DNA of 64,000 nucleotides from an uncultured delta proteobacterium (GTDB lineage Bacteria; Desulfobacterota; WTBG01; CAIYCZ01): assembly GCA_963803975.1 (NCBI GenBank), contig CAWDOY010000009.1:64001-128000 (forward strand). Direction: 5' to 3'. Of the stretch, positions 1,256 to 61,665 are shown in pieces. The notes under the pieces are model-generated. The model did not search any database and was not told where the DNA came from. It was given only the letters and a program-made list of their open reading frames with translations. Numbering within the stretch: the first letter of the stretch is position 1; the number at the start of each line of letters is the position of its first letter. Position numbers and translations under genes: made by a program.

Positions 1256-1363
1256 GTTTCAAGTTTAAGGTTTAAAGCTTGAAGTTTAAAGTTTGCAGTT
1301 CAAGGTTTAAGGTTTAATTAATTGTATCTTTGAACCTGAAACATGCAACCCGAAACGTTAACC
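1256..1363. repeat. Inverted array of degenerate 7-nt tandem repeats (GTTTAAG-type)
   Basis: Nine units gtttcaa/gtttaag/gtttaaa/gcttgaa/gtttaaa/gtttgca/gttcaag/gtttaag/gtttaat (1256-1318), then five inverted units tttgaac/ctgaaac/atgcaac/ccgaaac/gttaacc (1329-1363). Confidence 0.9.
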
Positions 1364-1671
1364 GTTCCCCCTCCAATAATCAGGCCGAACCACAACAGGT
1401 CACCATCTTTCAGCTTTGTCTTTAGCCCGTCGGGATAATCCAGCACCCACTGAATACGGCTTTTATTCAGATAGAGGTTGGGGGTCTTGTAGGGCTTGCC
1501 GTCAAGGATGCCCTCTGCGTAAACATGCTGGCCAAATTTAGCGCCATATTTTTTTATGACCTCTTCAATAAAGTCCTCTACCGTTGTTCCTGCCGTGATG
1601 GTAAAGGTCTCCTGTTCCTTATTGGTAATGCTCAGCACAGTGGTAAAATATTTACAGGTTACGGCGGGCAT
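1318..1671 (-). CDS. MoaD/ThiS family ubiquitin-like sulfur carrier
   Basis: Beta-grasp pattern ending GLKTKLKDGD...IIGGG, adjacent to ThiF, AGGT RBS. The C-terminal tail past GGG is uncertain. Confidence 0.8.
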   Translation of the reverse strand: MPAVTCKYFTTVLSITNKEQETFTITAGTTVEDFIEEVIKKYGAKFGQHVYAEGILDGKPYKTPNLYLNKSRIQWVLDYPDGLKTKLKDGDLLWFGLIIGGGTVNVSGCMFQVQRYN

Positions 1672-1913
1672 TGTTTCTACCTCCCAGAATATAGATATAA
1701 ACGCAAGAGCGCATACTTATTATTATACACATTTTCTCTGCATGTCAATTGGCATGTAAGCAGAATGAGCGGTTACGGGAGCATCTCTGCCGGCCATTGA
1801 CACACATGCGGAAAACGCAGCAGAATATAACAAAACAAATTATTGACACGTATTTTTAGTTATGTTACTTGTGAATTCAGTCACTATATAGTATTAATAT
1901 TATATTATAAATC

Positions 1914-2000
1914 TGGTCTTCCGAGCCGCTCACGCATAAGTAGGCGGCCGAAAAGGCTGAGGACAAAAACTTCAGCCCGCCGTGTTTGCGAAGGAAGCCT
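1914..2000 (+). ncRNA. Moco/Wco (molybdenum/tungsten cofactor) riboswitch-like RNA
   Basis: TCCGAGC...TAAG...GAAA...CCGTGTTTGCGAAGGAAG resembles the Moco RNA motif consensus as recalled. Helices cttcc/ggaag, gccgc/gcggc and ggctgagg/cttcagcc. Lies upstream of an AOR operon and overlaps a terminator. Confidence 0.65.
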
Positions 2001-2048
2001 GAAGAGTACAGCTGCATTGTGCAGCTTACTTTTCAGGCTTTTTCTTTT
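1996..2048 (+). terminator. Intrinsic terminator in the AOR leader (expression platform)
   Basis: agcctgaagagta-cagctgc...gcagct-tacttttcaggct followed by ttttctttt. Confidence 0.8.
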
Positions 2049-2181
2049 GGTACTTGGGGGATATTTAAAAAGTTACATGTGAAAGGAGGTGCAGTTTTAT
2101 TGTTTTTGTGGGAAGCCTGCGGGAAGCGGGCTGCAGTAGTTAACCAACATCTGTTACAGTTTTTGAAAAGGGAGAATAATT

Positions 2182-2682
2182 ATGAGTAACGGAAAAGCCC
2201 TGGTATACAACCAGGAAAAATGTACTGGATGCAGAAGCTGCGTCGTCGGCTGTTCTCTCTATCATGATGGCGAGTGCGGGAAAGTGGTTTCCCGGGTTGC
2301 CGTCGTGAGGAACGAGAGATTCGGAGAATCCTTTGTCGTCGGCTGCGACATGTGCACTGACGCGCCCTGCGCAGCAGTGTGCCCAACCGGCGCATGCGCC
2401 ATGGACACGGTCGCAGGCATCACCAAAATAAATGCCGATAAGTGCATCGGCTGCAAGGAATGCGCAATGGCCTGCCCCTTTGGTGTAATCAATATGCACT
2501 ATAAAACCGGAAAGGCTTTCAAGTGTGACCTCTGTGAAGGCCGTGATGCCGGTCCCGTTTGTGCTGACTGGTGCCCGAGCGGCGCAATAACCTATACAAG
2601 CCCCAATATTGCGTTCAAGGCCAAGCGCCGGGTAAAGCTTATGGAACGCTTAGAAGCTGCGAAAGCTGGAGAGGAGGGTTAA
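2182..2682 (+). CDS. 4Fe-4S dicluster ferredoxin-like subunit of AOR
   Basis: CTGCRSC, CDMC..PCAAVCP, CIGCKECAMACP and CDLC..CADWCP motifs; GGAG RBS. Confidence 0.92.
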   Translation: MSNGKALVYNQEKCTGCRSCVVGCSLYHDGECGKVVSRVAVVRNERFGESFVVGCDMCTDAPCAAVCPTGACAMDTVAGITKINADKCIGCKECAMACPFGVINMHYKTGKAFKCDLCEGRDAGPVCADWCPSGAITYTSPNIAFKAKRRVKLMERLEAAKAGEEG

Positions 2683-2686
2683 AACT

Positions 2687-4651
2687 ATGTATGGATGGGC
2701 TGGACAAAGACTACGCGTAGACCTTTCAACGGGAACAATAACCAAAGAGCCTCTCTCCTATGAGTATCGCCGCAAATGGATAGGCGGACGGGGCTTTAAC
2801 TCTGACATCATTTATAATGAAGTACCGGCGAACCTGGATCCGTTTGATCCTAAAGCGCGGGTGTGCTTTGGCGTGGGCCCGGTCAGCGGCACCGCTGCTC
2901 CTTCAACAGGACGCGTGACCGTTACCTGCAAGAGCCCGCTCACCGGCGGATTCGGTGACTCCAACATGGGCGGTCACTGGGGCGCAGAGCTGAAATATGC
3001 CGGCTATGATCAGATTGTCGTTCAGGGCCGGGCAAAACATCCGGTCTATATCTGGGTCGATGATGACAAGGTCGAGATCCGTGATGCACGCCACCTGTGG
3101 GGCAAATTCCCCCGCGAGGCAGACCAGATGATAAAAGAAGAGCTGGGCGACGAGGACATTCACATTGTGCTCATCGGGCCGGCCGGCGAAAACATGGTGC
3201 GGTTTGCCTGCACCTTTAACGATGTGTGGCGCGCTGCAGGAAGAACCGGACACGGCGGCGTCATCGGCTCCAAGAACCTGAAGGGCATTGCGGTCCGTGG
3301 TTCCGGCACCGTTAAAATTGCCAATCCCAAAGCCATGATGGATGTCTGCAACCGGCTGAGACAGACTTTTAAGCCCGACCCCATGAAGATCGGTCTCTAT
3401 GAGTTCGGCAGCCTGTGCCTCATTAACGTTGCCAACCGCGACGGCTGGTTCCCCTGGAGAAATTTTCAGGGCGGCGCACACCCGCTGGCAAACAACATGT
3501 CAGGCGAGACCCATGCCAAGACCGTGCTCAAGCACCGTGAAGGCTGCTTTGCCTGCCCGATCTGCTGCGGCCGATTCACCCACATTAAAGAAGGCAAATG
3601 GGCCGGTGAAGAGTTCGGCGGACCTGAATATGAACATGCAGTTCCGACCGGACCGCGCGTTGGCATAATTGAAGATGCCAATGATATCTGGCACAATGCC
3701 CGCTTAACCAACGACTACGGCATGGACGGTATCGAGACCGGCGGTGTAATATCAGCGGCAATGGAATGGTATGAAAAGGGCCTCATCACCACCAAAGAGA
3801 CCGGCGGACTGGAGCTTGAGTGGGGCAACGCGGAAGTCGTGGATAAGCTTATCCCCATGATTGCAACACGCAAGGGCTTCGGCGCAATCCTCGCCGAAGG
3901 CGCTGACCGGGCTTCTGACAAACTGGGACTCGGTGATAAAGGACACTATTATACCCTCACCACCCGCGGCATGACGCTGCCGGGCGATGACCCGCGCGGC
4001 CTTGGTTTCGGCTACGGGCTCTCTTTTGCAATGGGCACCCGCGGCGGCTGCGACCATCTCCGGTCACTGTGCTGCCTCGAGCTCTCCGGCGCCCTTTATC
4101 CGGGCCTCAACACCAAGATTCTCGGTGATGAGCGGCCCAATAAGCCGGTCACCACGGTAGGAAAACCCTACATGGTCTTCTATGAAGAGAACCAGAAAGC
4201 GACCACAGATTGTCTGCAGGTCTGCTGCTTCACCACCCACTGGTCATATGCGGTTCTCACGCCTGACCAGGTGGAATACCTGAATGCCGTTACCGGGCTT
4301 GACTTCACCGAGGAAGAGTTCCAGGAAATCGGCGAGCGCGTCTACAACCTGGAACGCGCCTACTGGGCACGCCAGATGTCCGGCGCCCGGGAAGACGTTG
4401 TGCCGGAGCGGTTTACCACTGAGCCGATGCCCCAGGGCGTTGACTATCAGACCAATGTCGGCGTTGTGTTCCCCTTAAGCGAAATGCTGAAAAAGTACTA
4501 CAAGTATCGTGAGTATGAGCCCGGAACAGGATTCCCCGGCGAGCGGAAGCTGAAACAGCTCGGCCTTGACTACGTGGCAAAGGATCTTGCCCCGCTGCGC
4601 AGCAAGTACCTGTCTGAGTCTGAGAAGAAAAAGAAAAAATACTACTATTAA
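2687..4651 (+). CDS. Aldehyde:ferredoxin oxidoreductase family (tungsten-type AOR/WOR) catalytic subunit
   Basis: KSPLTGG..DSNMGG, IGPAGEN, RAAGRTG.G...GSKNLK, CFACPICC, GPEYE, GMDGIE, RGGCDHLR. Confidence 0.95.
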   Translation: MYGWAGQRLRVDLSTGTITKEPLSYEYRRKWIGGRGFNSDIIYNEVPANLDPFDPKARVCFGVGPVSGTAAPSTGRVTVTCKSPLTGGFGDSNMGGHWGAELKYAGYDQIVVQGRAKHPVYIWVDDDKVEIRDARHLWGKFPREADQMIKEELGDEDIHIVLIGPAGENMVRFACTFNDVWRAAGRTGHGGVIGSKNLKGIAVRGSGTVKIANPKAMMDVCNRLRQTFKPDPMKIGLYEFGSLCLINVANRDGWFPWRNFQGGAHPLANNMSGETHAKTVLKHREGCFACPICCGRFTHIKEGKWAGEEFGGPEYEHAVPTGPRVGIIEDANDIWHNARLTNDYGMDGIETGGVISAAMEWYEKGLITTKETGGLELEWGNAEVVDKLIPMIATRKGFGAILAEGADRASDKLGLGDKGHYYTLTTRGMTLPGDDPRGLGFGYGLSFAMGTRGGCDHLRSLCCLELSGALYPGLNTKILGDERPNKPVTTVGKPYMVFYEENQKATTDCLQVCCFTTHWSYAVLTPDQVEYLNAVTGLDFTEEEFQEIGERVYNLERAYWARQMSGAREDVVPERFTTEPMPQGVDYQTNVGVVFPLSEMLKKYYKYREYEPGTGFPGERKLKQLGLDYVAKDLAPLRSKYLSESEKKKKKYYY

Positions 4652-4683
4652 TCAGCATTGAGTTGAAGGGAGGTCATGAGAAT

Positions 4684-4926
4684 ATGGCTATTATGACAAA
4701 AGCACAGGCCAAAAATTTCGCCGAGATGGATGACTTCATGCTCGAGCTTTGCGACTTTTTAAAAAGCAAGAGCGTCATCGACGCTACCACCCACCGCAGC
4801 ATCCTGCTGAAAGGCTTTTCCCGAATGGTTGACTGCCTGCAGGAAAAGAAGGTGATTAGCGCCAGGGAAGCCAAAGAGGCTATGGATAAAGGGTTTACCT
4901 CGCTGGTATACGCTTTAGCGAAATAG
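4684..4926 (+). CDS. Small hypothetical protein with an internal two-fold repeat
   Basis: GGAGGT RBS; co-oriented directly after AOR and before a terminator. Confidence 0.7.
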   Translation: MAIMTKAQAKNFAEMDDFMLELCDFLKSKSVIDATTHRSILLKGFSRMVDCLQEKKVISAREAKEAMDKGFTSLVYALAK

Positions 4927-4949
4927 CGCTCCGTTTCGGTAACACGAAC

Positions 4950-5010
4950 AAAAAAAGGCCTGGAACCATTTGTTTACCATATCAGTAACAAAGGTTTCAG
5001 GCCTTTTTTT
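4950..5010. terminator. Intrinsic terminator hairpin
   Basis: aaaaaaaggcctggaacc...ggtttcaggccttttttt. Confidence 0.85.
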
Positions 5011-5033
5011 ATCTTGAAAATCTGCAAGAACTT

Positions 5034-5127
5034 GGTAAAAAAGGTAAAGAGGTAGAAAGGTTAAGAGGTGAAAAGGTGTATTGTTTTTTTATCTGTTAGC
5101 CTCTTGACCTCTTAGCCTTTTTGCCTA
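5034..5127. repeat. Inverted array of degenerate 8-nt repeats (AGGTNAAG-type) upstream of batC
   Basis: aggtaaag/aggtagaa/aggttaag/aggtgaaa, then ttagcctc/ttgacctc/ttagcctt/tttgccta. Confidence 0.85.
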
Positions 5128-5140
5128 TTATTATTAAAGT

Positions 5141-6042
5141 ATGTTTATGCGAAGAGTAATTTTTCTTATTGCCTTGTTTATATATGCTCTGGGGGATGCT
5201 GCGTACTGCGCTTCCCTCTACGATACCGTGAAAAAGGGCAACCGGCTCTACCAGGATGGAAAATTTGACGAGGCGCTCAAGACCTACGTCGATGGCCAGA
5301 TAGAGCATGCTGATGACCTTGCCTTAAAATATAATATAGCCGCCTCCCACTATAAAACAAAAAACTACGACGAGGCAGTGAAAGGGTATCTCGATGTTGC
5401 CGCATCTGCCAAAGATGCAGGGCTGCAGGAAAAGTCTCTCTATAACTGCGGCAATGCCCTGTACCAGCAGGGAAAACTTGAGGAATCCATAGAATATTAC
5501 AAAAAAGCTCTCGGGCTTAATCCTGATGACCAGGACGCCAAGCACAATCTTGAGTTCGTGCAGGAAGAGTTGAAGAAGCGCAAGAGCGAAGCTAAGAAGA
5601 CAGAGCAAAAACAGCAGCAGGAACAACAACAGCAAAAGCAGGACGAAAATAAACAGCAGCAAAACCAGCAGAACGATCAGCAGGGCCAGCAGCAGGAGCA
5701 GAATAACCAGCAGCAACAGGCCCAACAGCAAAGGGAGAAAAAAAGGAGCAAGAGAAAGCAGCTCAGCAGAAACAGCAGCAGGAACAGAAAGAAGAGCAAG
5801 CCCGGGCCGGCGAACAGAAGCCCGAAGAACAAAAGCAGGCGCAGGGCCAGCTGGGCACCGCAGATAAAAAAGAAGGCGAAAAACAAGACGAAGCTCAGGC
5901 AGTGCCGCAGCAGGCACGGCAGATGACCAAAGAAGAAGCTCAGCAGTTGCTCAACAGCATTGAAGAAAACCGGGGCAAGTTTGCCAAAAAGAAAGCGCAG
6001 GAAGAAGCTGCCGGGCAGTACCGGCCGGAAAAGGATTGGTAG
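5141..6042 (+). CDS. batC: BatC-like TPR protein with Gln-rich linker (frameshift near 5740, likely sequencing error)
   Basis: TPRs (YNIAA, YNCGNALY, DAKHNLE), poly-Q linker; second frame ends MTKEEAQQLLNSIEE...EKDW. Confidence 0.75.
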
Positions 6043-6049
6043 TTAAAGA

Positions 6050-6175
6050 AAGGCAAAAGGCACAAAGGCAACAGGCACAAAGTTAATAGTAAAATAATTG
6101 AGAGCAGGCATCGAGGCACAAAGGCATAAGGCACAGAGCGACAAAGGCGCAGGCAAAGATGCAGAAGGCACAAAG
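6050..6175 (+). repeat. Left arm: AGGCACAA-type degenerate tandem repeats
   Basis: About 10 aggca(c/t/a)aa units running up to the ATG at 6176. Confidence 0.9.
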
Positions 6176-6535
6176 ATGAAAACGTTTCGTGATCTTATAG
6201 TTTGGCAAAAAGCCATGCAACTGGTAACGGACACCTATCAGATAACCCTTAATTTTCCTAAAGAGGAGCTTTATGGACTCACCTCTCAAATAAGGCGCTG
6301 CTCCATATCGATTCCCAGTAATATGGCTGAAGGATATGGAAGAAATTCAACAGAGGACTATCTGCGCTTTCTGAAAATATCCCGGGGTTCACTGTATGAA
6401 TTGCAGACCCAGATAGAAATCGCCTTCAATTTACACTATATAAAAAAAGAAGATTTTGATCGAATGAATGAAGCAGGCAGAGAAATTGAGCGCATGGTAA
6501 GCAGCCTGATCATTAAAATCAACCAGGCAAAATAA
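6176..6535 (+). CDS. Four helix bundle protein (23S rRNA IVP-like, PF05635/TIGR02436 type)
   Basis: MKTFRDLIVWQKAM...FPKEELYGLTSQIRRCSISIPSNMAEGYGR...FLKISRGSLYELQTQ is the family signature; 119 aa. Confidence 0.93.
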   Translation: MKTFRDLIVWQKAMQLVTDTYQITLNFPKEELYGLTSQIRRCSISIPSNMAEGYGRNSTEDYLRFLKISRGSLYELQTQIEIAFNLHYIKKEDFDRMNEAGREIERMVSSLIIKINQAK

Positions 6536-6658
6536 CTCTGTGCCTCTGTGCCTGCCACGAGCGGTGAGCCACTCGGCCTTGAGCTCGTGTCCGAAAGGCG
6601 CGTCGAACCGTAGAGGGACCTTATGCTTTGTGCCTTCTGCCTTATGCCTTTGTGCCTC
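6536..6658 (-). repeat. Right arm: inverted TTGTGCCT-type repeats with an embedded REP-like insert
   Basis: 6638-6658 is the exact reverse complement of 6113-6133, and 6626-6640 of 6161-6175. A cggtgagc...gtcgaaccg insert lies at about 6562-6610. Confidence 0.9.
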
Positions 6659-6669
6659 ATAATAAACTT

Positions 6670-8448
6670 ATGAAACAACTATCCGCCTTACTTATCACCA
6701 TTTTTCTTCTGCTCTACGCGGCGCCGGCAGTAATAGCCGCCGAGACTTCCCTCTCCATCTCGCTGGACCGGGACACAGCGACCCTGGCAGACTCTATAAA
6801 TCTTACCATCTCCGTTGAAGGGGCAAGCGGCGAGCCGCAGCTGCCGTCCTCCCCGGCGTTTGAAACAGTACGCCAGGGCAGCTCTTCCCGGATGCAGATA
6901 ATAAACGGGAAGATATCTTCCAGCGTTGATTACAGCTATGCCCTCTACCCGAAGAAGGAAGGGGTTTTCACCATCGGCCCCGCAACCCTTGATAACAACG
7001 GATCCATGCTCACCAGCAACACGGTCAGCATTACCATTCAAAAGGCGGCAGTGAGCGAAAAGCGGAACGAGGATGTGTTTGTGACTGCGGAAGTGGACAA
7101 TCAAAATCCCTATGTGAATGAGCAGATCATCTATACCTTCAAGTTCTATTACCGGGGGAGAGTTGCCAATGCCCGCATGACAGAGTCTCCGTCGTTTGAA
7201 GGGTTCATAGCCGAGCTGTTGGGAAAGGAGCGCGAGTATCAGACCACTATAAATGGCCGGCAGTTTATGGTGACGGAAATAAAGCAGGCGCTGTTCCCCA
7301 TAAAGCCCGGACCCCTGACCATCTCTCCCTCAGCGCTGCAGTGCAGCGTGGCAGTGAGAAGACAGCGCCGGGGCGGGACTTTTAACGACCCGTTCTTTGA
7401 TGATTCTTTCTTCGGCTTTTCCCAGACCGAGTCGAAGATGCTGCGCACCTCACCTCTGGAAGTAACGGTCAGGCCTTTGCCTGAAGAGGGGAAACCGCGG
7501 GATTTTGCCAACCTCGTCGGAGAGTTCAAGGCTGCCGCGGAGATAAGCAAAAAGAAGCTGGAGGCGGGAGAGTCTGCTACCCTCACCCTCACGCTCACCG
7601 GGCAGGGCAACCTGAAAAATTCCCCGGCTCTCAGACTTGAAAATCTGGACGGCTTCAAGGTCTATGATGACAAGCCATCATTCGAGCCGCAGGTTGCGGA
7701 TGGACGCATCGGCGGTAAACTGATCATAAAAAAAGCGCTGGTGCCCTTGAAGGAGGGAACGCTCCAGGTTCCGCCGGTTGCAGTTGCCTATTTTAATCCC
7801 CACTCAGGCGCTTATGAAACAACGCGGACTGAGGCGCAGATTCTGGAAGTTTTACCGGCAAAGGAGAAGGAAAAGCTCCCCATTGCTGAAGCTGAAAAGC
7901 AAGCTGCCGGAAAACAGGAGATTAAAATACTGGGGAAGGATATACTGCCCATTCACACCGCACTGAACGTGCTGTCACCCGAGCCGCTTAATCCTCTCTC
8001 ATGGCCGGCAGCAGCTCTGCTCTTTGTTCCTCTGCTGGGCTTCTCTGCCTGCCTTCTGGTTAAACAGCGCAGGCTTCGATACAGCGACGGCACCGGCCTG
8101 GCCCGCGGCAAAAACGCTCACAAGAATTTCAGTAAAAAACTGACGCTGGTGAAAAAGCTGCATCATCATGACGAGGAAGCCTTTTACCGTAATGCTTCAA
8201 AAGCTTTAAAAGATTTTATCGGCGATAAGCTGAATATTGTCGGCAGCGCTTTGACCGCGGCGGAAATTGAAAGAAGGCTTTCAGCGCTGAACCTTGGAGA
8301 GTCCTGTATCCGGGAATTGAAAAGAATAATAGAGCTGCTGGAGGCAGGACAGTTTGCTTTTCAAAAATATACGCCTGAAGAACGCGAAGCTATGGTTGAC
8401 GCCATGAAGAAAGCGGCCCGGGAGATCGACCGAAAGATTAAACAGTAG
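6670..8448 (+). CDS. batD: BatD family protein
   Basis: Signal peptide, SSSRMQIING, YVNEQIIYT, VRPLP, VGEF, YFNP..GAYE, then a C-terminal TM segment; context between batC and batE. Confidence 0.85.
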   Translation: MKQLSALLITIFLLLYAAPAVIAAETSLSISLDRDTATLADSINLTISVEGASGEPQLPSSPAFETVRQGSSSRMQIINGKISSSVDYSYALYPKKEGVFTIGPATLDNNGSMLTSNTVSITIQKAAVSEKRNEDVFVTAEVDNQNPYVNEQIIYTFKFYYRGRVANARMTESPSFEGFIAELLGKEREYQTTINGRQFMVTEIKQALFPIKPGPLTISPSALQCSVAVRRQRRGGTFNDPFFDDSFFGFSQTESKMLRTSPLEVTVRPLPEEGKPRDFANLVGEFKAAAEISKKKLEAGESATLTLTLTGQGNLKNSPALRLENLDGFKVYDDKPSFEPQVADGRIGGKLIIKKALVPLKEGTLQVPPVAVAYFNPHSGAYETTRTEAQILEVLPAKEKEKLPIAEAEKQAAGKQEIKILGKDILPIHTALNVLSPEPLNPLSWPAAALLFVPLLGFSACLLVKQRRLRYSDGTGLARGKNAHKNFSKKLTLVKKLHHHDEEAFYRNASKALKDFIGDKLNIVGSALTAAEIERRLSALNLGESCIRELKRIIELLEAGQFAFQKYTPEEREAMVDAMKKAAREIDRKIKQ

Positions 8449-8537
8449 GCAAAGAGGTAAAGGGAAGAGGTGAAAAGGTTGATAATTCTCAAACGGTAAC
8501 CTTTTAGCCTTTTGGCCTCTTAACCTATTCACCTTCT
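8447..8537. repeat. Inverted array of 8-nt repeats (AGGTNAAA-type) at the batD/batE junction
   Basis: aggcaaag/aggtaaag/aggtgaaa/aggttga, then taaccttt/tagccttt/tggcctct/taacctat/tcaccttc. Confidence 0.85.
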
Positions 8538-8551: not shown

Positions 8552-9340
8552 ATGAAAAAGCTGCTATCTTTAATTTTATTAACTGCACTGGCAGTCGGCG
8601 TGCTTTACGCGGCAGCGCGTGCCCAGGACAAAAACAGTGAAGAGGCCGACACCTCGCATATGTTTCTGCAGGCTACCCAGGCATACAAGGACGGCGCTTT
8701 TGACAAGGCAGCCGCTCTTTATGAAAAGCTCCTGGCACAGGGCATTGTCAATGGCAGCATGTTCTACAATCTTGGCAACGCGTACCTGAAAGCCGGAAAG
8801 ATCGGCAAGGCGCTGGTTAACTACCGGCGCGCCGATATTTTTATGCCCCGCAATGAGGACCTGCAGGCAAACATCCAGTACACCCTGCAGCTCACAACCG
8901 ATAAAATTGAAGGCCGCGAGCCGTACGCGTATGCAAAAAACTTCTGCTTCTGGTACTCAAAGCTCAACGTCAGGGAGCTGGCCATCCTGTTTCTGATTTT
9001 CAATCTTATACTGTGGGGACTCGCCATAGCGCGGCTCTTTTATAGCGGGGAATATCTCTGGCTTGCTCTCTCTGTCTCCATAGCCTGCGCCATTCTGCTC
9101 GGCATATCCTCCGGTATTAAGCTGTATTCATTTTATTACAGCCCCACCGGTGTTGTCACGGCAAAGGAGATCACGGTCCGGTCCGGGGGCAGCCGTAATG
9201 ACACCGCCCTCTTCCAGCTCCATGAGGGAGCAGAGTTTGACTGGCTGGATGAAAGCAGCGGCTGGGTTAAAATCAAGCTGCGCGATGGGAAAAAAGGCTG
9301 GGTACAGAAAGATACCGTGGATAAGGTTGCCGTGGAGTGA
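8552..9340 (+). CDS. batE: BatE-like TPR/TM/SH3b protein
   Basis: YNLGNAY TPR, two TM helices, C-terminal VRSG..LFQLHEG..WVKI..GKKGWV. Confidence 0.85.
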   Translation: MKKLLSLILLTALAVGVLYAAARAQDKNSEEADTSHMFLQATQAYKDGAFDKAAALYEKLLAQGIVNGSMFYNLGNAYLKAGKIGKALVNYRRADIFMPRNEDLQANIQYTLQLTTDKIEGREPYAYAKNFCFWYSKLNVRELAILFLIFNLILWGLAIARLFYSGEYLWLALSVSIACAILLGISSGIKLYSFYYSPTGVVTAKEITVRSGGSRNDTALFQLHEGAEFDWLDESSGWVKIKLRDGKKGWVQKDTVDKVAVE

Positions 9341-10191: not shown

Positions 10192-10455
10192 GGTTCTTTC
10201 CTTTCGATCAAAAATAGTTACCTTCAGGGATTAATTTATTTATTATTTCTAATGGCACAATAAAGCCGGCTTCTCAGCATACCTCCTTTCAATCTCTATT
10301 GCTTCCATTTTTTAGTGTTTTTATACCCGTGGAAAAGTCTGTTTTGTATGAGGTATTACTATATCATGAGATTGAAAGTTGTTCAATTATTTTAAAGCAT
10401 TATTTTAAAGTTCTTAACTTGACACGACACAGCAATTCAGATATTCTTTTTTACA

Positions 10456-10620
10456 GCCAGGTAACCCGCACGGGTTTTAATAGGGAAGATGGTGCGACTC
10501 CATCGCGGACCCGCCGCTGTAACCGGGGACGAAAGCCATGAGAAAGCCACTGTGCCGTATAGCGGCACGGGAAGGAATGGCGAGTAGACTGATCCGGAAG
10601 CCAGAAGACCTGCCGGCAGC
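10456..10620 (+). ncRNA. Cobalamin (B12) riboswitch
   Basis: AATAGGGAA, GGTG..ACTCC, CCCGCCGCTGTAA, GCCACTG, GGGAAGG and AGCCAGAAGACCTGCC B12-box. TTGACA lies upstream at 10419. Confidence 0.95.
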
Positions 10621-10686
10621 ACAGAGACCGCTATCCGTCGTGGAACACGGGCAGCTTTCAATGCACACATCAGGATGAAAAACGGC

Positions 10687-17683: not shown

Positions 17684-17745
17684 AGGGGTTAGGGGGCGGA
17701 AGGCGGGGTTAGGGGTTAGGGGTTCGTGTTTCGTGCATCGGGGCA
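17684..17745 (+). repeat. Solo arm of 7-nt repeats (AGGGGTT)
   Basis: aggggtt units decaying to cgtgttt/cgtgcat. Confidence 0.6.
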
Positions 17746-29134: not shown

Positions 29135-30329
29135 ATGTCTCAAACCACTTCCCCCGGCACCATAGCGGCTGGTTCCAAAAAGATTCTCCTGGTTGCGGGA
29201 GAGGCTTCCGCTGACCTCCATGGTTCGCATGTGGTGCGTGAGCTGAAAAGGATTGATCCCTCAGTTCATCTGTACGGCATCGGTGGCGACGAGCTGCGCC
29301 GGGCAGGCATGGAGATTCTTTTTGATGCCCGGGACCTTTCTGTGGTAGGGATTGTTGAGGTCGTCTCCCGCCTGCCGCACATCAGAAAGGTCTTCAATAC
29401 GCTCAAGCAGCAGATTGAAGAGGCGCCGCCGGGGCTTCTTAATCCTGCTTGATTACCCGGACTTTAACCTGCGCCTGGCTGCAGTTGCGAAAAAGCATAA
29501 GGTGCCGGTTCTCTACTATATCAGCCCGCAGATCTGGGCGTGGCGGCAGGGGCGGGTAAAAAAGATCGCGCGTATTGTGGACCAGATGGCAGTGGTCTTC
29601 CCGTTTGAGGTGCCGCTGTATGAAAAAGAAGGGGTGCCGGTGCAGTTTGTCGGCCACCCCCTGCTGGATCGGGAAATCCCGGCGTTTGACAGTGCCGGCA
29701 GCCTGGAGGCGTTTGGCATGAAACCGGGCTGGCCGGTGATCGGCCTGCTGCCGGGAAGCAGGAAATCTGAAATCGAGCGGCTGCTGCCGGTTATGCTTGC
29801 TGCAGCACAACGCATCCAAAAAGAGTACCCGATGGCGCAGTTTATCATCCCGGTTGCTCCCGGCATCCGCAGAGAAGAAATAGCAACATGGGTTGCGCAG
29901 AAAAATGTTCCGGTCACAGTGGTGGAAAACCAGCTCCACCGGGCCCTGCAGGTCTGCAGCCTGGTGCTGGTGGCATCGGGCACCGCAACCCTTGAAACAG
30001 CGCTGATGAAAAAACCGATGATCATCCTGTATAAGATTTCTTTTCTTACCTATCTTATCGGGCGCCTCATGATCCGCGTGCCCTGCATCGGGCTGGCAAA
30101 TATAGTTGCCGGCACGCAGGTGGTGCCGGAGCTGATCCAGGCAGATGCATCAGCGCAGCGCATTGCCGGGGAAGCCCTGGCCCTGCTTAAGAGCCCTGAG
30201 CGCCTGGCTGCCATGGAAAGGGACCTGGGGCGGATCCGGGAACGGCTCGGCGCACCGGGAGCATCGGCACGGGTGGCCCGCATTGCCTATGACATGCTCA
30301 GTAAAGGCCATAATGCAGTTAGGCGTTAA
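29135..30329 (+). CDS. lpxB: Lipid-A-disaccharide synthase (frameshift near 29435)
   Basis: VAGEASAD, DYPDFN, YISPQIWAWR, FVGHPL, LPGSR, SGTATLE. Confidence 0.93.
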
Positions 30330-30380
30330 GCTTTCAGCAAAAACAACTTGAGCTGAACGCTGACTGGCTGAACGCTGAAC
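30315..30380. repeat. Inverted 7-nt repeat array (GCTGAAC-type) at the lpxB/msbA junction
   Basis: gcgttaa/gctttca/gc, then gctgaac/gctgact/gctgaac/gctgaac. Confidence 0.7.
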
Positions 30381-35338: not shown

Positions 35339-35486
35339 AGGTTGTTGAAAAAATAATCTTTTCCAGGCTGGTCAAAAACATCCAGATGCAAGGCGCGCGA
35401 AATCCTGAGGAATGAGGCGTACTGTACCGTACGTCGCAATGACGAAGGATGAGCGCAACGCAGCAGATGGGTTTTTTCAACAGCCT
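35339..35486 (+). mobile_element. MITE-like family A, copy 1
   Basis: About 148 bp with ends aggttgttgaaaaa/tttttcaacagcct; highly similar to 51518-51666 and 63372-63519. Confidence 0.85.
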
Positions 35487-35511
35487 GCTGTAACCCGGAC
35501 GGTTCATGCAC

Positions 35512-37468: not shown

Positions 37469-37510
37469 TCTCTTAAGACTGAAATTTCTTGCAAAAATGG
37501 AAAGACAAAG

Positions 37511-37666
37511 TTAAAATCTGGAACTCAGGAAATCAGGAAAATTTTGTTTTTACCTTTGTGAGTTCCTGTCAGCTGTGAGCTCAGTCGAATCGAGTTCCAA
37601 ATTCAATCTTCTTTGTTTCTTTTTAGTCTTTGCGGTTAACTTTGGTTCCGGCTTGTCCGGGTTAGG
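37511..37666 (+). repeat. Dispersed repeat family B, copy 1
   Basis: About 155 bp ending ttggttccggcttgtccgggttagg; a reverse-complement near-copy lies at 58075-58223. Confidence 0.85.
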
Positions 37667-37702
37667 TTGTTAAAAAATAGTTTTCCCCCAGGAGAAAAAC
37701 CA

Positions 37703-47075: not shown

Positions 47076-47165
47076 TTCCCATTCCCTGTTGCCTATTGCC
47101 TGACTGCCTGTTGCCTTTTTCCATCATTCACTGCAATCCGCACTAACCCCCAATCCCCAACCCCG
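47076..47165. repeat. Two stacked 7-nt repeat arms at the DUF4922/spoIID junction
   Basis: tgcctat/tgcctgac/tgcctgt and ccccaat/ccccaac. Confidence 0.6.
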
Positions 47166-49646: not shown

Positions 49647-49719
49647 AGCTTTCAGCATTCAGCTGTCAGCATAAAAATATTACCATCAACTGAAAGCTGA
49701 TTGCTGATAGCTGACAGCT
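49647..49719. repeat. Inverted 7-nt repeat array (GCTGANA-type) at the WD40/GT2 junction
   Basis: agctttc/agcattc/agctgtc, then actgaaa/gctgatt/gctgata/gctgaca. Confidence 0.85.
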
Positions 49720-51492: not shown

Positions 51493-51517
51493 AGGGTTTC
51501 TCTTACAGAAGATAACC

Positions 51518-51666
51518 AGGCTGTTGAAAAACACCCATCTGCTGCGTTGCGCTCATCCTTCGTCATTGCGACGTACGGTAATGTACGACTCATTCCTCAG
51601 GATTTCGCGCGCCTTGCATCTGAATGTTTTTGACCAGCCTGGGGAAAACTACCTTTTCAACAACCG
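51518..51666 (-). mobile_element. MITE-like family A, copy 2
   Basis: Reverse complement of 35339-35486 with few differences. Confidence 0.85.
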
Positions 51667-51667: not shown

Positions 51668-52943
51668 TTAAGGAGTCAGAGAGTTAAGGAGTTGCAGGAG
51701 TTTAAGCATTATTAACTCCGTCACTCCGGAACTCCCGAACTCTGCAACTGCAATTATATGTGTCTTTTCTGCTTTAAACTTTGCTATTTCATCACTGCCG
51801 AAGCCAAGCTCCTTCAATACTTCTTCATTGTGCTGGCCGAGCGTGGGTGGAGCAGCCGTTACCTCAGCCGGTGTTTTGGAAAACTTGATCGGGGCGCCGG
51901 TTACCTTGATTTTGCCGCACTTGGGGTGATCAATCTCGACCAGCATATCCCGGGCAATAACCTGCGGATCGGCAAAAATCCGGTCAATGGTGTAAATAGG
52001 CCCGCAGGGAACGCCGGCCTTGTCCAGGATGTCAAGCCACTGATCCATGGTTTTGGTGGCGATCACCGGGTTGATAATTTCAACTACCTCTTTGCGGTTT
52101 TTCACCCGCTGGGCGTTGGTGGCAAACTTCGGGTCACTGACAATGTTCTGCAGGCCGGTTGCCTCGCAGAATTTTTGCCAGAGGTTATCATTGCCCACGG
52201 CAATATTGATATAGGCGTCTTGTGGCCTTGAAGGCCTGATAGGGAACAATGAGCGGATGGCCGGAGCCGATTTTTTCCGGCACATCGCCTGCTGTCAGGT
52301 ACCGGCCAGCCTGATAGGTAAGCCAGGAAACCTGTCCGTCAAGCATTGAGGCATCAACCATCTGGCCTTCGCCGGTGCGCTGCCGGTGATACAGTGCGGT
52401 GAGAATACCGATGGCGGCAAACATGCCGGTTGCAATGTCGGTAACCGCCACGCCGACTTTTATTGGCGGCCCGCCCGGCTCGCCGGTGATCCCCATGATG
52501 CCGCCCATTCCCTGCAGCACCTGGTCAAAACCGGGGCGCTCGCGGTAGGGGCCGGTCTGGCCGAACCCGGAGATGGAGCAGTAGATGATTTTCGGGTTTA
52601 TCTTCTTGACGCTCTCATAGTCAAGGCCGAGCCGGTCCATGGCACCGGGGCGGTTGGTTTCAAGAAGCACGTCCGCCTTTTCAAGCATCTTGTTAATAAT
52701 GGATTTGGCATCCTTGCTCTTCAGATTAAGGGAGATGCTCTTTTTGTTGCGGTTGACGCTTAAAAAATAAGCGCTCTCTCCTTCAACAAAGGGCGGGCCC
52801 CATGCCCGCGAGTCATCACCTGAGCCCGGTGGCTCTACCTTGATAACCTCAGCTCCCATATCAGCCAGGAGCATGGTGCAGTAAGGGCCTGCCAGTGCCC
52901 GTGAAAAATCAATTATTTTAATACCTTCCAGTGCGCGTGCCAT
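51668..52943 (-). CDS. CaiB/BaiF family III CoA-transferase (frameshift near 52225; true C-terminus probably near 51755)
   Basis: LAGPYC..LAD.GAEVIKVE, NRNKKS, SGFGQTGP, D.ATG, PP.LGQH. Confidence 0.92.
51671..51752. repeat. Inverted 8-nt repeat array (AGGAGTTN-type)
   Basis: aggagtca/gagagtta/aggagttg/aggagttt, then taactccg/tcactccg/gaactccc/gaactctg. Confidence 0.85.
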
Positions 52944-56478: not shown

Positions 56479-58068
56479 CCATCGGTTTCTTTCTGCTCTG
56501 TTTCTGGACCATAGCGCTGCTCTTCTCCTACAGCCGCCCTGCTTCCCCGGCAAAACCCGCCGCCGGAACCGGGGTGCGCTGGCTGCTGCGCTGCGTGTGC
56601 CTGCTGTTCCTTGCCACCTATCTCTATCAGGCCACCTGGCAGCTGGCCGGATTCGGCCGGCCCGCGTTCATGGACTTCATGCGCAAGTACAGCCGCCGGC
56701 CCGTTAATCCCGCAAAAGAGATGGCCCGGGGCAGCATCCTTGACCGCAACGGCGTAGAGCTTGCGGTCAATGCCCGCTCTGACAACCTGCTCCGCAGGTA
56801 TCCCTATGGCCGGGGCTTCTGCCATCTCATCGGCTACGCAGACCCGATGTTTGGTCTGTCGGGACTGGAAGCTGCTGACAATGCGTTCCTGAACGGCTCA
56901 AGCCTCTCCTCTCCTGATGAGCTGGGCAGGTTCAGCATGAACATCCTTAACCACCGCACCGCAGAGGGCAATGATCTTATCCTTACCATAGATGCCCGGC
57001 TGCAGAAAACAGCGGCAGCCCTGCTGCGCAACAGGCCCGGCGCCATTGTGGCCATACAGCCGCAGGACGGCTCAGTGCTGGCGCTGGTCAGCGCCCCTGC
57101 TTTCAGTCCGGAAGACCTTGAGGCATCACTGTTCAGTGATGAAAGAAAAAACAGTTCGCCGCTTCTGAACCGTGCTGTCCAGGGGCTGTATCCTCCTGGT
57201 TCAATAATTAAAATTATGGTTGCAGCAGGTGCTGTGGAGGGCGGTTTTTCTGATCTTCTGGACTGCCCGGCCCAGGGCTACACGCCGCCGGGGCCGCATC
57301 ACCGGCCAATCCGGGACCATGAATATTATGAATACCAGCGCCGTGATGAAACCTGGCAGGGATGGGGCCGCATCGGGCTGGAGGAAGGGTTTGCCCGTTC
57401 TTCCAATGTGTTTTTCGCCCAGCTGGGAGTAAAACTCGGCAGCCGGCAGCTGAACAAAGCTGCCGAGCGCTTCCTGTTCAATAAGCCGCTGGTGCTCTTT
57501 GAAGGGTCATCAGGAACTATTTCAGTAAAGCAAAGCTTCTGGCCCGTGGTGAGCCCGGAAGATCCGGGAAGCCTTGCCCAGCAATCAATCGGCCAGGGAG
57601 CTTTGCTGGTGACGCCCCTGCACATGGCGCTGCTTGCGGCCGCGATTGCCCGTGACGGCGTAGCTCTATGCCCCGCGCCTGGCAATGCGGACACCGCCCC
57701 GCCTGCTCGATAGAATAATGGATTACGGAGTCGCGGAAAAGCTGAAGCAGCTCATGCGCTACACCGTGGAGCACGGCACTGCTCAGGGCGCAAATATAAA
57801 GGGCTTGAACATCGCGGGGAAAACCGGCACTGCCCAGGCTTCAGAAGGCGCTGACCATTCGTGGTTTGTGTGCTTTGCTCCCCTGGAGCGGCCCGCTATC
57901 GCGCTGGCAGTGCTTATTGAACACGGCGGATACGGCGCGGCCTCTGCATTGCCGGTGGCAGCCGAACTCGTCAGGAAGGCAAAAAAACTGGGGCTGCTGG
58001 AGCCCGAAGCTGCTCCTCCGGCGGAAACTAAAAATAAAACCTCAAGGAAAAATTCTAAATCCAAATAA
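56451..58068 (+). CDS. Class B penicillin-binding protein, PbpA-like (frameshift near 57675)
   Basis: RGSILDRNG, R.YP, LNRA.QG.YPPGS..K, SSN, IGQG, GKTGT. Confidence 0.9.
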
Positions 58069-58266
58069 CTAAATCCTAAACCGGACAAACCGGAACCAAA
58101 GTTAACCACATAGACTAAAAAAGAAGATTGAATCTGGAACTCGATTCGACTGAGCCATCGCTGGCAGGAACTCACAAAGAAAAAAACAATACTTTCCTGA
58201 TTTCTTGAGTTCCAGATTTTTAATTTTAAATTCAGTTTAGTGCTTCGGATTTCGAATTTCGGATTT
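58050..58266. repeat. Inverted 7-nt array (AAATCCN-type) enclosing family B copy 2 (58075-58223)
   Basis: aaattct/aaatcca/aataact/aaatcct ... tttagtg/cttcgga/tttcgaa/tttcgga. Confidence 0.8.
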
Positions 58267-58276
58267 ATCAAAGCTT

Positions 58277-59627
58277 ATGGTTCGCGCACAAGTTACCAAA
58301 TTTACCATCATTGATGCCTGGAGATTCCGCCGCCAGGAACGCTCGCTTTTTTTCTGGTCATTCCTGGCGATACTGGTGGGGTACGTGCTGGTGGTGGTCC
58401 GCAAAACCGGGCGCATTCCGGCTCGATTGGCAGGACTATCTGCCGCTGCTGGTCTATCTTGGCGCCATGCTCTTCATCCACCTGATACTGGTGCTGTTAA
58501 AGTTTCGCGGCGACCCGCTGCTGCTTGCCGCGGTCTTTTTCCTTGCCGGGTTCGGCATGCTTACCCAGTTTCGCATGGGGACCTTTGAGATTATCATCTC
58601 GGACCGGCTTTCAAACTATGCCTTCCCCGCAGGCCTTGCCCTCATGCTCATCGTCACCGTTCTCTTCAGGAGAGGGCGGTTTCGCGTCCTGCGGCCGCTG
58701 GCCATACCCTGCGCGCTGCTGGCGGCAATTCTCCTGGGAGCGATTCTTTTCCTCGGCCAGCGCTACCGGGGCGCACTGTTTATGCCGGGGTATATCAACC
58801 CGGCAGATCTCATAAAAATCCTGCTGATGATTTTTCTTGCCGGCTATTTTGCGCGCTGGCAGAAGGAAGGCGAGCATGCGCCTGTTGGTGTCACCTCCCT
58901 GGTTCCGATGCTGCTGCTCTGGGCAGTGCCCATGGGGCTGCTCGTGCTGCAGCGCGATCTCGGCATGCTGGTGCTGCTCAACGCCGTGCTGCTCGTTCTT
59001 GCGGTTGTGGCAACCGGCCGCATCAGCTATCTGTTTGTTGGGGTTCTTGGCGCGGGAATACTCGGCGGAGTCATGTTTCTTTTTTCTGCGCACGGCCAGG
59101 CGCGGTTTACGGCGTGGCTTACTCCCTTTGCCGATCCGACCGGCAAAAGCTGGCAGATACTGCAGGCCCTGTCAGCCATGTATTCCGGCGGATTGTGGGG
59201 TGTGGGTCTGGGCGGCGGTTCCCCCCAGTTCATCCCCATCGCATCATCTGACTTCATCTATGCCGTCATTGGCGAGGAACTGGGTTATGCCGGGTGCGGC
59301 ATCGTGCTCGTGTTCTACCTGGTGCTCTTCTTCCGCGGCTACCAGATCGCGGCCCGCATTGCTGCACCCTTCGGCAGGCTGCTTGCCACAGGGATTGTGA
59401 CGACCCTGGCATTTCAGACGCTCTTAAATATCGGCGGCGTGATCAAGGCGCTGCCGCTCACGGGCATAACGCTTCCGTTCATCAGCCACGGCGGAAGCAG
59501 CCTTTTAACCACATTTCTCGGGGTGGGACTGCTGCTGGCAATTTCCGAGCGGGAAACTGAAACAAGGAAAATAATCGAGAGGCCAAAAGCTGCTAAAGCT
59601 AAAAGGAAGCGGGCGACGGAGGGCTAA
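58277..59627 (+). CDS. SEDS family RodA/FtsW protein (frameshift near 58410)
   Basis: QRDLG, R..AW..PF, Q..Q.L, G.GLG.G, SDFIY..IGEELG, PLTGITLPFISHGGSS. Confidence 0.92.
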
Positions 59628-59630
59628 GCT

Positions 59631-59867
59631 TCAACGGTTTCTGTCCTCCCGGAGCAGCTCGCTGCTGTCGCTATGATATATCTGTTCTTTCTTCAGCTTT
59701 TTCCGGATGGCCCGCGCAATGCCGACAACATCAATAGCGGCACGCTGAGCACCGTGTTCAATAAGCTCCTTTAATTCCTGCTGCAGCGACCTGTTGCGCT
59801 TTTTAGCTGCAGCCTTGAGCTTAGCGAGCGCTGCAGATGAAATATTCCGTATAAGAACATTAGGCAT
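59631..59867 (-). CDS. FitA-like ribbon-helix-helix antitoxin (no adjacent toxin)
   Basis: M.NVLIRNI.....LK..A....RSLQQEL...DSSELLREDR.R. Confidence 0.8.
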   Translation of the reverse strand: MPNVLIRNISSAALAKLKAAAKKRNRSLQQELKELIEHGAQRAAIDVVGIARAIRKKLKKEQIYHSDSSELLREDRNR

Positions 59868-59893
59868 AACGATTCACCCTGCACTGTATAATG

Positions 59894-59912
59894 TGCTATC
59901 ACGATGATAGCA
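59894..59912. promoter_or_regulatory. Operator-like palindrome TGCTATCA-N3-TGATAGCA
   Basis: Perfect 8-bp inverted repeat about 27 nt upstream of the FitA-like start. Confidence 0.65.
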
Positions 59913-59932
59913 TGTTGACCGGTATCCTGCTG

Positions 59933-59964
59933 GGAAGCCCCTCACTGTGGGCGGGGAGTTTCAC
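59933..59964 (+). mobile_element. IS200/IS605-like right-end remnant
   Basis: gaagcccc...ggggagtttcac hairpin ending in TCAC; no transposase nearby. Confidence 0.45.
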
Positions 59965-60045
59965 TAAAATATAGCTTGACACTTACTCGGATTAAAAGGA
60001 AAATTTAAAAAAATATATTAACAGGTTATGTCAGCGAGGTAGAGG

Positions 60046-60240
60046 ATGAATTGTTTTACGTTAGTTGAGAAGGCAGAACAGTATTCAGGTAAATATGTTG
60101 CTATAAAATCATTTAAATCAAAAAAAGTAATTTGCTCCGGTGACAACCCTGCTCAAGTGGTAAGAAATGCCAGAAAAAAAGGGGCAAAGGACCCGGTAGT
60201 CTTTTTTGTACCTGAAAAAGATGTAGTGTACATATACTAA
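60046..60240 (+). CDS. DUF5678-like small protein
   Basis: YSGKYVAI....VI.SG......A..KG...P....VP. Confidence 0.7.
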   Translation: MNCFTLVEKAEQYSGKYVAIKSFKSKKVICSGDNPAQVVRNARKKGAKDPVVFFVPEKDVVYIY

Positions 60241-60659
60241 TGCCAATAAGAAACTGTCCACTCACCTGCCGGCCCGGCGGATATTATAGTGCTTACCTTC
60301 CCATTAGAATAATCAATCCACATACTAAAAAAAGCCAAAGAACACTTGCGCTGATTGATACAGGCGCAGACGAGTGTGTTATTCCTTCACGCCTGGCTGA
60401 AATCTTGGGGCACAAGCTGGAGGCGGGTGATGCAAAACCGGTAAGCACCGGCAATGACCGCGCAATAGCCTATTCTCATACAACAACCATTAAAATTTAC
60501 CACCCGGCAACGGGTGTGCTAATAGATACTATTGCAAATACACCGATAGATTTTATGCCTGTTGAAACGGTATTATTAGGGGTAAAAAGCTTCCTGAGCA
60601 ACTACAGACTCATCATAGATTATCCTGCCCAGAATTTTTCATTAATAAAGGCAAAGTAG
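60240..60659 (+). CDS. Retropepsin-like (clan AA) aspartyl protease
   Basis: ALIDTGAD...IP..LA..LG and LLG...FL motifs; overlaps the upstream stop codon. Confidence 0.82.
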   Translation: MPIRNCPLTCRPGGYYSAYLPIRIINPHTKKSQRTLALIDTGADECVIPSRLAEILGHKLEAGDAKPVSTGNDRAIAYSHTTTIKIYHPATGVLIDTIANTPIDFMPVETVLLGVKSFLSNYRLIIDYPAQNFSLIKAK

Positions 60660-60817
60660 GTCAAGCCATCAAAATCGTGCTCATGCACACACCCACAAAA
60701 TAATTCAAAGCTGGAGCCTTTGCTTTCCTGCTTATCTGCATTATATAATTTTAATAAGCTTAATTAGCATTTCTTATGGTGGGACTACTTACTGGTCTAT
60801 CTTAAAAAACAAGTATC

Positions 60818-61555
60818 CTATTTTTTCTGCCCCCGCTCCCAGATTTGAATCTGGCGCATGCCTTTCTCCTTCTGGGTATAGTCCCGCATCACAATGCGTG
60901 AAGGCGTTACTTTGGTTACTATCTTGGTCTCTTTAATCGCCTGCAGAAGCTCCGGGGTCATCTTCAGGGGAAGGGTCGGCATGTAGATGTCAAGTGCCTC
61001 CTCAAAACCAGGGTCTTTATTTTTAAGAACCTGCGCGGTGCCCACCACCTGAATGCTGAGCGGCTCTTTAAAGTAGTTATGGTGCTCAAGCTGCTTCACA
61101 TAGGCAAGCGACACGTTCTTGTTGGCTGCCATCTGAAACAGCTTCTCGGTCTGCTTCTCGGACATGGCATAGAAGGTGAGCGTTTTGGGGTCTATCACAA
61201 ACTCAATGACCGTTGAAAGCGGTTTATTATCATAGGCTGTGCTGAGCACGTAAATCTCCCGGTAGTCACCCTTGCCTTTAACAATTTCTGCAATGCGCTT
61301 CTCGATCTCTTCACGCGGCAGAGCGCCGGTTTTACTCTTTTTCAAAGTCATGGTGGCGGCGGTGTAGGCATCCACCCCGTTGTACACATGGCATTCCTGG
61401 CACTTTATATCTTTATCATAGGCCGGGTGCGCGGGCGGCACCTTGGTTGCCTTGGTATAGAGATATTTGGGGCCGCCTTTTTCCGCGGCAGGGCAGTAAC
61501 CGGCAGTAAGCACCAGCACAGCGACGAACATTAGCAACAAACAGAACTTTTTCAT
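60818..61555 (-). CDS. Exported protein with CxxCH heme motif and pyridoxamine-oxidase-like domain
   Basis: Signal peptide, CQECH, VLST...KP, K..Q...N..VSL, Q..G.A; GGAGG RBS. Confidence 0.7.
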   Translation of the reverse strand: MKKFCLLLMFVAVLVLTAGYCPAAEKGGPKYLYTKATKVPPAHPAYDKDIKCQECHVYNGVDAYTAATMTLKKSKTGALPREEIEKRIAEIVKGKGDYREIYVLSTAYDNKPLSTVIEFVIDPKTLTFYAMSEKQTEKLFQMAANKNVSLAYVKQLEHHNYFKEPLSIQVVGTAQVLKNKDPGFEEALDIYMPTLPLKMTPELLQAIKETKIVTKVTPSRIVMRDYTQKEKGMRQIQIWERGQKK

Positions 61556-61584
61556 GGAACCTCCTTTTTGAAAAGATGATTTAA

Positions 61585-61665
61585 AGCTGTCAGCTATCAG
61601 CAGCCTTCAGCGTTTATTAATTTCTTTTCACCTTTCACCTTCCACGTTTCACTTTTCACTTTTCT
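61585..61665. repeat. Two unrelated 7-nt repeat arms downstream of pgm
   Basis: agctgtc/agctatc/agccttc and cttttca/cctttca/ccttcca/cgtttca/cttttca. Confidence 0.7.

Follow-up and report, generated by a model that had tools for sequence, protein, structure and literature searches.

Filled and empty inverted 7-8-nt repeat arms around four-helix-bundle genes at protein-gene junctions of an uncultured delta proteobacterium

Heptamer repeats of bacterial genomes have been viewed either as sites for regulators or as motifs that form quadruplexes, and the S23p four-helix-bundle (FHB) protein as an oddity of the intervening sequences (IVS) of 23S rRNA with no function assigned. In Xanthomonas, GGGAATC repeats form inverted heptamer pairs, 70-75 per genome, between open reading frames (ORFs) that are aligned, with the purine-rich arm after the stop codon and its complement before the start codon, and Nostoc has a counterpart in GGGGA(C/T)T repeats (main text of Rehm et al., PMC4692102). 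Runs of the heptamer TAACTGA just before start codons are strain-specific in Beggiatoaceae, and a mobile origin has been considered for them (MacGregor, PMC4679880, in part). The Coxiella IVS, as described in part of PMC4990558, carries tandem heptamers upstream of the S23p start, varies in their copy number, has spread horizontally in a patchy manner and has a stem that is cut by RNase III. Here we analyse a 64,000-nucleotide stretch (the window; G000:C9:64001-128000) of the 4.25-Mb, 57-contig assembly of an uncultured delta proteobacterium, a genome detected in sediment and freshwater sequencing runs. In this window an FHB gene lies between inverted arms of short repeated units, and similar pairs of arms stand empty at other gene junctions. 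We consider it probable, at roughly 60%, that the empty pairs derive from FHB cassettes now without their gene and that arm-guided recombination goes on copying them from junction to junction. The filled cassette is made up as follows.

6043..6175, + strand: 5' arm, AGGCAC(A/AG) units in two blocks
6176..6535, + strand: FHB gene, TIGR02436 (S23p/IVP family), 119 aa, with batC-like and batD-like neighbours
6536..6660, + strand: 3' arm, TGTGCCT units, broken by a palindromic insert of ~65 nt (6555-6620)

The ORF at 6176-6535 scores 134.7 bits against TIGR02436, where the cut-off is 24, and is thus a member of the S23p family; it matches PDB 2gsc with an E value of 2.1e-26. Against the model of Avd, from diversity-generating retroelements (DGRs), it reaches 28.7 bits (E 1e-6), under the cut-off of 80. 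The whole cassette is predicted to fold as one long stem around the gene (z -4.7), and the genome contains 3 near-full copies of the palindromic insert. In G003, one of the relatives introduced below, the matching junction is 18 nt long and has no FHB gene.

Six intact FHB genes, plus remnants, are found in the genome, and all six lie between inverted arms, with six different units. Conversely, matched arms spaced 200-1500 nt apart turned up FHB (10 spans) and no other protein cargo in this genome; two further spans of this size each bridge two separate sites. Across 30 genomes of the class, 109 FHB loci were found, of which 5 at contig edges were left out, and 50 of the 104 scorable loci pass a strict inverted-arm test. 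As a control, the same test is passed by 2 of 733 small genes of this genome, both of them FHB genes. A periodic 4-mer is common to both arms in 79/104 of the class loci, against 25% of mismatched loci. The association extends beyond the class: among 80 homologues taken from other or many phyla, 49 of the 78 scorable ones pass the strict test, and FHB genes of two cyanobacteria have such arms. Among individual loci, 17 kb of one contig (L082, G037:C23:61274-78546) contain six FHB cassettes whose arms differ, and cassettes with 9-nt units (L095, L098, L130) widen the period range to 7-9. At L049 (G003:C4) the cassette stands between two ORFs, which we take to be one ending like a DGR-type target and one resembling Avd.

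The arrays themselves occur far beyond chance. A genome-wide scan for autocorrelation at lags 7 and 8 with an inverted-repeat search, as suggested in the original prediction, gave 52 inverted 7/8-nt sites with a strict detector, where five shuffles gave 0, 0, 0, 2 and 0, and four pairs of control lags 0-2. The strictest threshold leaves 43 lag-7 and 50 lag-8 arrays against 0-10 at lags 4-6 and 9-13; 8-nt units are as common as 7-nt units. In total 391 arrays were counted, where two block shuffles gave 25 and 17, and pairs separated by at most 100 nt are inverted in 29 cases and direct in 2, with 0 in the shuffles. Arms stand at 276 of 2881 junctions, about one in ten, while shuffles give 17-36. 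The array blocks are mainly intergenic, 92/574 lying deep inside called genes; these are our own, approximate calls on a frameshift-rich assembly in which many genes are split. At least ten unit families coexist in the genome, most of them unable to form quadruplexes.

Filled and empty states can be compared with those in the three nearest relatives, G001 (same genus), G002 (same family) and G003. Five junctions carry an FHB cassette in G001 or G002 and only arms here; judging by the N-termini, we take the downstream genes to be those of a DHH/CBS protein, valS, fumC, ribH and yggT. Upstream of the first (C3:239361-239573), GTTTAAG arms as in the relative are kept together with ~50 nt of the FHB 3' end, while at the other four the units differ from those of the relative's cassette. 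At two further junctions arms are kept around a decayed or interrupted FHB gene. The original prediction had taken the empty pairs for cargo-less versions, scars or landing sites, of the element at 6043-6669, and these five junctions, one with a remnant, lend it support. Cargo also differs at one and the same junction: at least two junctions hold unrelated FHB cassettes here and in a relative (C44/G001 C202 and C15/G002 C1), three if a paralogue pair (C33 and G003 C45) is counted. The G003 C3a and G001 C89 loci map on one side only, to arm-free places. Two FHB proteins of different genera (L042 in G002:C48, L054 in G001:C220) are 99% identical at one junction, which suggests a recent transfer, and the same junction in G003 has an unrelated FHB gene with other arms. 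A single junction can be filled, empty, differently armed or bare in different genomes, and cassette movement with arm-guided recombination likely links these states.

The repeat unit follows the protein clade. Arm similarity climbs with FHB identity, from a cosine of 0.05 below 30% identity to 0.53 at 70-85%, and 30 of the 38 FHB pairs with at least 60% identity stand at different junctions. Homologues of the window FHB protein with at least 63% identity have GGCA(C/T/A), AGGCAC-type arms on both sides in 13/20 cases, against 3/58 below 63%; the former are labelled Desulfobacteraceae, Pirellulales, Nitrospirae, Chitinophagaceae, Sumerlaeota, Gemmatimonadales and others. In 41 genomes the density of three array patterns correlates with FHB count (rho 0.58), and 10 of the 11 FHB-free genomes have at most 4 arrays per Mb; in the unit-protein and density statistics alike, kin are not independent.

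The other arrays of the window are given below with their folding z-scores.

1256..1363, - strand: empty inverted pair, GTTTAAG units, moaD-family/moeB junction (z -2.3)
5034..5127, + strand: empty inverted pair, AGGTNAAG units, before a batC-like gene (z -6.8)
8447..8537, + strand: empty inverted pair, AGGTNAAG units, batD-batE junction (z -3.0)
17684..17724, + strand: solo 5'-type arm, GGGGTTA units, divergent region after mntA; shorter in G001
30315..30380, + strand: empty inverted pair, TCAGC/GCTGA units, lpxB-msbA junction (z -2.3)
37500..37667, + strand: 168-nt dispersed non-coding element, 15 near-full copies, absent from the original prediction; replaced in G001
47076..47164, - strand: two stacked 5'-type arm blocks, sense GGGGTT then AGGCA, unpartnered (z -1.7)
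49647..49719, - strand: empty inverted pair, TCAGC/GCTGA units (z -4.2)
51668..51752, - strand: empty inverted pair, GGAGTT 8-nt units (z -4.6)
58050..58266, + strand: AAATCCN arms around a 138-nt dispersed element (58088-58225), pbp2-ftsW junction
61585..61665, - strand: chimeric, non-pairing pair, GTGAAA-type 5' arm and GCTGA-type 3' arm (z -0.95)

All ten stretches named in the original prediction are present where it placed them, with the units it gave, on direct reading of the window. Only 49647 and 51671 of its seven pairs pass the strict detector; the remaining ones are more degenerate and still hairpin-forming (z -2.3 to -6.8), and an Rfam search of the window put no family on any array. 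Most of the pairs described as empty are so, the exception being 58050-58266 with its enclosed element. Of three arms described as solo, the one at 17684 is solo, 61585 is a mismatched pair and 47076 a stack of two unit types. The spacing of 7-14 nt claimed between array and next start codon holds approximately (~8-15 nt) for 6 of 7 pairs; the 51671 pair ends ~170 nt away because a 149-nt dispersed repeat lies between. The upstream reading frame enters the arm in three cases, namely the 1256 pair and, going by ORF call, those at 49647 and 51671.

The same junctions in the relatives show how fast the arms turn over. Six window pairs can be read in G001. The unit family is retained in three of them (1256, 30315, 49647) and swapped in the other three (5034, 8447, 51671); G003 has no arms at 1256, 5034, 6043, 8447, 30315 and 58050. 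The 1256 pair is near-identical in G001 and of the same unit family in G002. At 5034 we find GCGGATT arms in G001 and nested GGGTT and AGGT arms in G002, and one sediment run has a different unit, beginning at 5041. The 8447 junction has outer GGGTTCAAG and inner GCGGAAT arms in G001 and GGGGTCAAG arms in G002; arms are absent from this batD-batE junction in most other relatives, the genes being tightly coupled at most of 30 batD loci. At 30315, G001 has more units of the same family and G002 has other content, including an element of the 37500 type. Different units stand at 47076 in G001 and G002, and none in G003. The 49647 junction keeps the family in G001, with an adjoining insert like a repetitive extragenic palindrome (REP), and has GTTGCG-type arms in G002; at 51668 both G001 and G002 have TCAGC arms. 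At 58050, G002 has a short GCTGA arm and in G003 the genes abut; the 61585 arms are replaced in G001 and absent in G002. Genes next to the swapped arms showed a further feature, in that the first 70 nt of batC (5141-5210) and batE (8552-8620) diverge sharply from G001 while the remainder is 92-98% identical, and these diverged starts coincide exactly with the replaced arms. These starts suggested that coding flanks may be co-converted along with the arms; a wider look at such flanks gave p=0.06 downstream and 0.36 upstream, on 7 changed sites only. An automatic labelling of 36 junctions as same, different or none (22/7/7) was not relied on, since inspection by eye showed several coding false positives and misassigned replacements and nested sites.

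Intergenic identity to G001 falls below 0.9 at 13 of 16 armed junctions, as against 1 of 11 arm-free junctions (p=0.0003), and the breaks, by eye, coincide with the stop codon and the ribosome-binding site or lie close to them. Of 60 co-oriented junctions with both arm types, 53 have them in 5'-then-3' order, the polarity having been learned from FHB cassettes in other genomes. Units are stacked at 25/206 armed co-oriented junctions, and hairpins are nested, with newer arms enclosed by older, shared ones: the GCGGAAT hairpins recovered from G001 all lie inside GGGT(T/C)C-type outer arms (7/7), and at several of these sites an AGGT hairpin, or nothing but the outer arms, stands in our genome. 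When the batD-batE hairpin of G001 is set against a hairpin from a non-homologous locus, 112 of 126 columns agree (89%), and the match ends at the outer arms; in our genome a nested hairpin occurs in seven copies of 81-91% identity with unrelated flanks. Population contigs at window sites show unit-number changes and other units, and unit-number variants also distinguish G000 from G001. The arrays had been called unlike slippage products, which stands for their origin and less so for their later history, unit-number variants being found in wild populations, such as the 5' arm variant of run X1 with a 56-nt loss between units (6072-6129).

Other repeats of the window touch the arms. The elements at 37500-37667 and 58088-58225 (14 near-full copies of the latter) belong to one family of 140-170 nt, which itself seems to consist of arms with a 9-nt period. 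Members occur within heptamer arms, one such place being the site that keeps an FHB remnant. The 149-nt repeat resembling REPs or MITEs (miniature inverted-repeat transposable elements) lies at 51517-51665, 35339-35489 and 63371-63518, has 86 near-full copies here and many in G001 and G002, and inserts beside arms. At the 1256 junction, the MoaD/SAMP-like protein (1318-1671, - strand) has a 14-residue tail beyond its GGG motif, encoded by a short repeat arm; a short tail beyond the glycines is also present in G003, and the C-terminus may be processed. A cobalamin riboswitch (10441-10631, RF00174, 113 bits) stands upstream of a radical SAM gene. Frameshifts, which are probably errors of the assembly, split bamA, lpxB, lpxK, uvrD, rnb, pbp2, pgm and other window genes; at 2176 and 5731 single-base gaps are corrected by read data.

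Under the reading that we prefer, a cassette consisting of its own arms and an FHB gene would arrive by horizontal transfer in the loop of an existing hairpin, and rarely at a bare junction. The gene would then be lost through deletion between the arms, and the inner part could be copied to other sites with a common outer unit, one-sided events leaving stacks and chimeras. Slippage would alter unit number, and selection would retain events that fall between stop codon and ribosome-binding site. We infer the order of these events and the homology-guided step from the states described above, which are themselves observed.

Several results weigh against this reading. In G001-G003 no filled counterpart was found for any empty site of the window itself, a check on cargo at orthologous junctions that the original prediction had suggested. 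In more distant relatives, only 1 of 7 mappable filled junctions is armed here, against a background of 164/1480. Neither a clean pre-insertion allele nor, by eye, a target duplication was seen, armed and unarmed alleles differing across the whole spacer, and no transposase or recombinase is attached. Among the contigs listed from three DNA runs and one RNA run, of 20 runs in which the genome was detected, no joint skips the FHB gene. One genome, G031, is a clear exception to the density correlation, with 136 GAGT-triplet matches and no FHB hit, and when the genomes were tested unit by unit, two patterns held and a third did not (p 0.018, 0.027 and 0.61). The loci compared with G001 were picked for having arms there and kin are non-independent, so that the p-values overstate significance. 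Clustering by sequence takes in only 23 of 88 sites, and 3 of the 8 clusters are plain segmental duplications. Finally, some replaced sites have no outer arm in common (e.g. C47:135898), and there the homology step needs extra events.

Movement through RNA is the alternative that fares best, although we regard it as unlikely. By analogy with the assistance that Avd gives to retrohoming, the FHB protein would recognise its cognate unit and drive mobility as a chaperone. The arms would base-pair once transcribed with the operon, the loop would be excised by RNase III as happens with 23S IVS, and reverse transcription by a borrowed enzyme would place a copy in another hairpin. This would account for the tie of unit to protein clade, kept in different phyla at 63-69% identity, alongside the turnover of empty sites inside one genus, and it is in keeping with the long stem around the gene, the weak, sub-cut-off similarity to Avd (E 1e-6) and a slight excess of G-U pairs on the sense strand (129/1424 against 90/1388). 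The Coxiella IVS, with RNase III cutting in the stem and tandem heptamers upstream of the S23p ORF, offers a precedent in the part of PMC4990558 that describes it. However, physical linkage alone can account for the match of unit and clade, the sense strand has no folding advantage, and a search of the assembly for reverse transcriptase gave only frameshifted pieces on other contigs. These pieces are presumably of the group II intron type.

It is improbable that the hairpins are elements of host mRNA, selected for stability, processing or translation of the next cistron, into which FHB genes drift. The position of the arms would suit such a role, the first 5' arm lying within 30 nt of the stop codon in 90/131 junctions and arms often being near the start (58/126); matched pairs fold well, and the Xanthomonas repeats are mostly transcribed and conserved in place (main text of PMC4692102). 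A periodic RNA structure acting on the downstream cistron had also been proposed in the original prediction, and it gained no support. Folding shows no advantage for the sense strand (27/46, p=0.30; Wilcoxon 0.12), the same junctions are bare in most relatives or have their units swapped, unpairable chimeras and solo arms are common, with unmatched arms in 22/53 two-sided junctions by our own detector, and the unit follows the FHB clade. The predicted excess at co-oriented junctions is weak and not established for paired sites, co-oriented in 41/49 cases against a 72% background (p=0.05), or in 46/59 when the detector is loosened (p=0.21). It is absent for arms overall, which stand at 206/2195 co-oriented (9.4%), 38/363 divergent (10.5%) and 32/323 convergent junctions (9.9%; p=0.55). 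Purely local origin, by slippage and hairpin-templated copying of one arm into the other without a mobile element, is very improbable and, as sole cause, largely refuted, though it stands as a modifier. It fits the unit-number variants that are seen in populations and that separate G000 from G001, and the 65/88 sites without a close copy. It does not account for the few unit families common to FHB clades of other phyla, the abrupt stacks of different units or the 89%-identical nested hairpins at unrelated loci.

A wider proposal can be made tentatively, though we would not bet on it: a class of transposase-free mobile elements across bacterial phyla, in which each FHB clade would carry and recognise its own 7-9-nt repeat code, home into the loops of existing hairpins and seed hundreds of non-autonomous empty copies. 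If this were true, protein-coded repeat homing would explain 23S rRNA intervening sequences, cyanobacterial short tandemly repeated repetitive (STRR) sequences and the excess of heptamer repeats in bacterial genomes, for which an explanation has long been wanting.

Compared with known systems, the cyanobacterial STRR sequences resemble the heptamer arms described here, which as tandem 7-nt units in mainly intergenic positions qualify as long heptameric simple repeats. REPs, bacterial interspersed mosaic elements (BIMEs) and MITEs are, like our arrays, dispersed, near-identical, non-coding intergenic hairpins, but the arrays have no fixed terminal sequence, no target duplication or adjacent transposase was seen, and their arms are periodic and interchangeable. 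They do not share terminal repeats with a transposase-encoding partner as MITEs do with an insertion sequence, their ends differing by unit family and only FHB genes lying between matched arms; no palindrome is common to the unit families like the conserved one of REP/BIME (20-40 nt, with a fixed terminal motif and a linked RAYT/Y1 transposase), a comparison in which no transposase search was made. The protein belongs to a fold family related to DGR Avd, but the hit is weak, and with 28.7 of the 80 bits required and no reverse transcriptase or template repeat beside the gene it does not qualify as an Avd. The Beggiatoaceae TAACTGA repeats likewise run in heptamers just upstream of start codons; the part of MacGregor (PMC4679880) that treats them describes direct repeats and possible regulator sites, and no cargo gene, nesting or exchange. 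The Xanthomonas and Nostoc repeats share with ours the inverted heptamer pairs and their polarity, but the main text of PMC4692102, in which the terms 'four helix' and 'intervening' are absent, has one unit per genome, read as G-quadruplex motifs and mostly conserved between two species, as opposed to at least ten mostly non-quadruplex families here and sites swapped within a genus. In the literature covered, which lies mostly outside subscription journals, no paper joins FHB genes to inverted heptamer arms outside rRNA or describes nesting or unit-clade linkage.

The closest relative is the 23S rRNA IVS of Coxiella and Leptospira with its S23p ORF, which has the same protein family (TIGR02436, 2gsc) and, as predicted here too, a gene in the loop of a terminal-inverted-repeat stem. 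The cassettes described here differ in standing at protein-gene junctions, with no rRNA match in the window, and in having many types of unit within a single genome and empty copies that far outnumber the filled ones. Single-unit inverted heptamer pairs (PMC4692102) and ORF-bearing IVS (PMC4990558) are each known, and the present arrays are likely a variant of the IVS-type cassette with non-autonomous derivatives, placed at protein-gene junctions. Linking the two would give the FHB protein a candidate job, binding or moving its cognate unit, and the repeats a life cycle, and naturally matched and mismatched protein-unit pairs offer a comparison of specificity.

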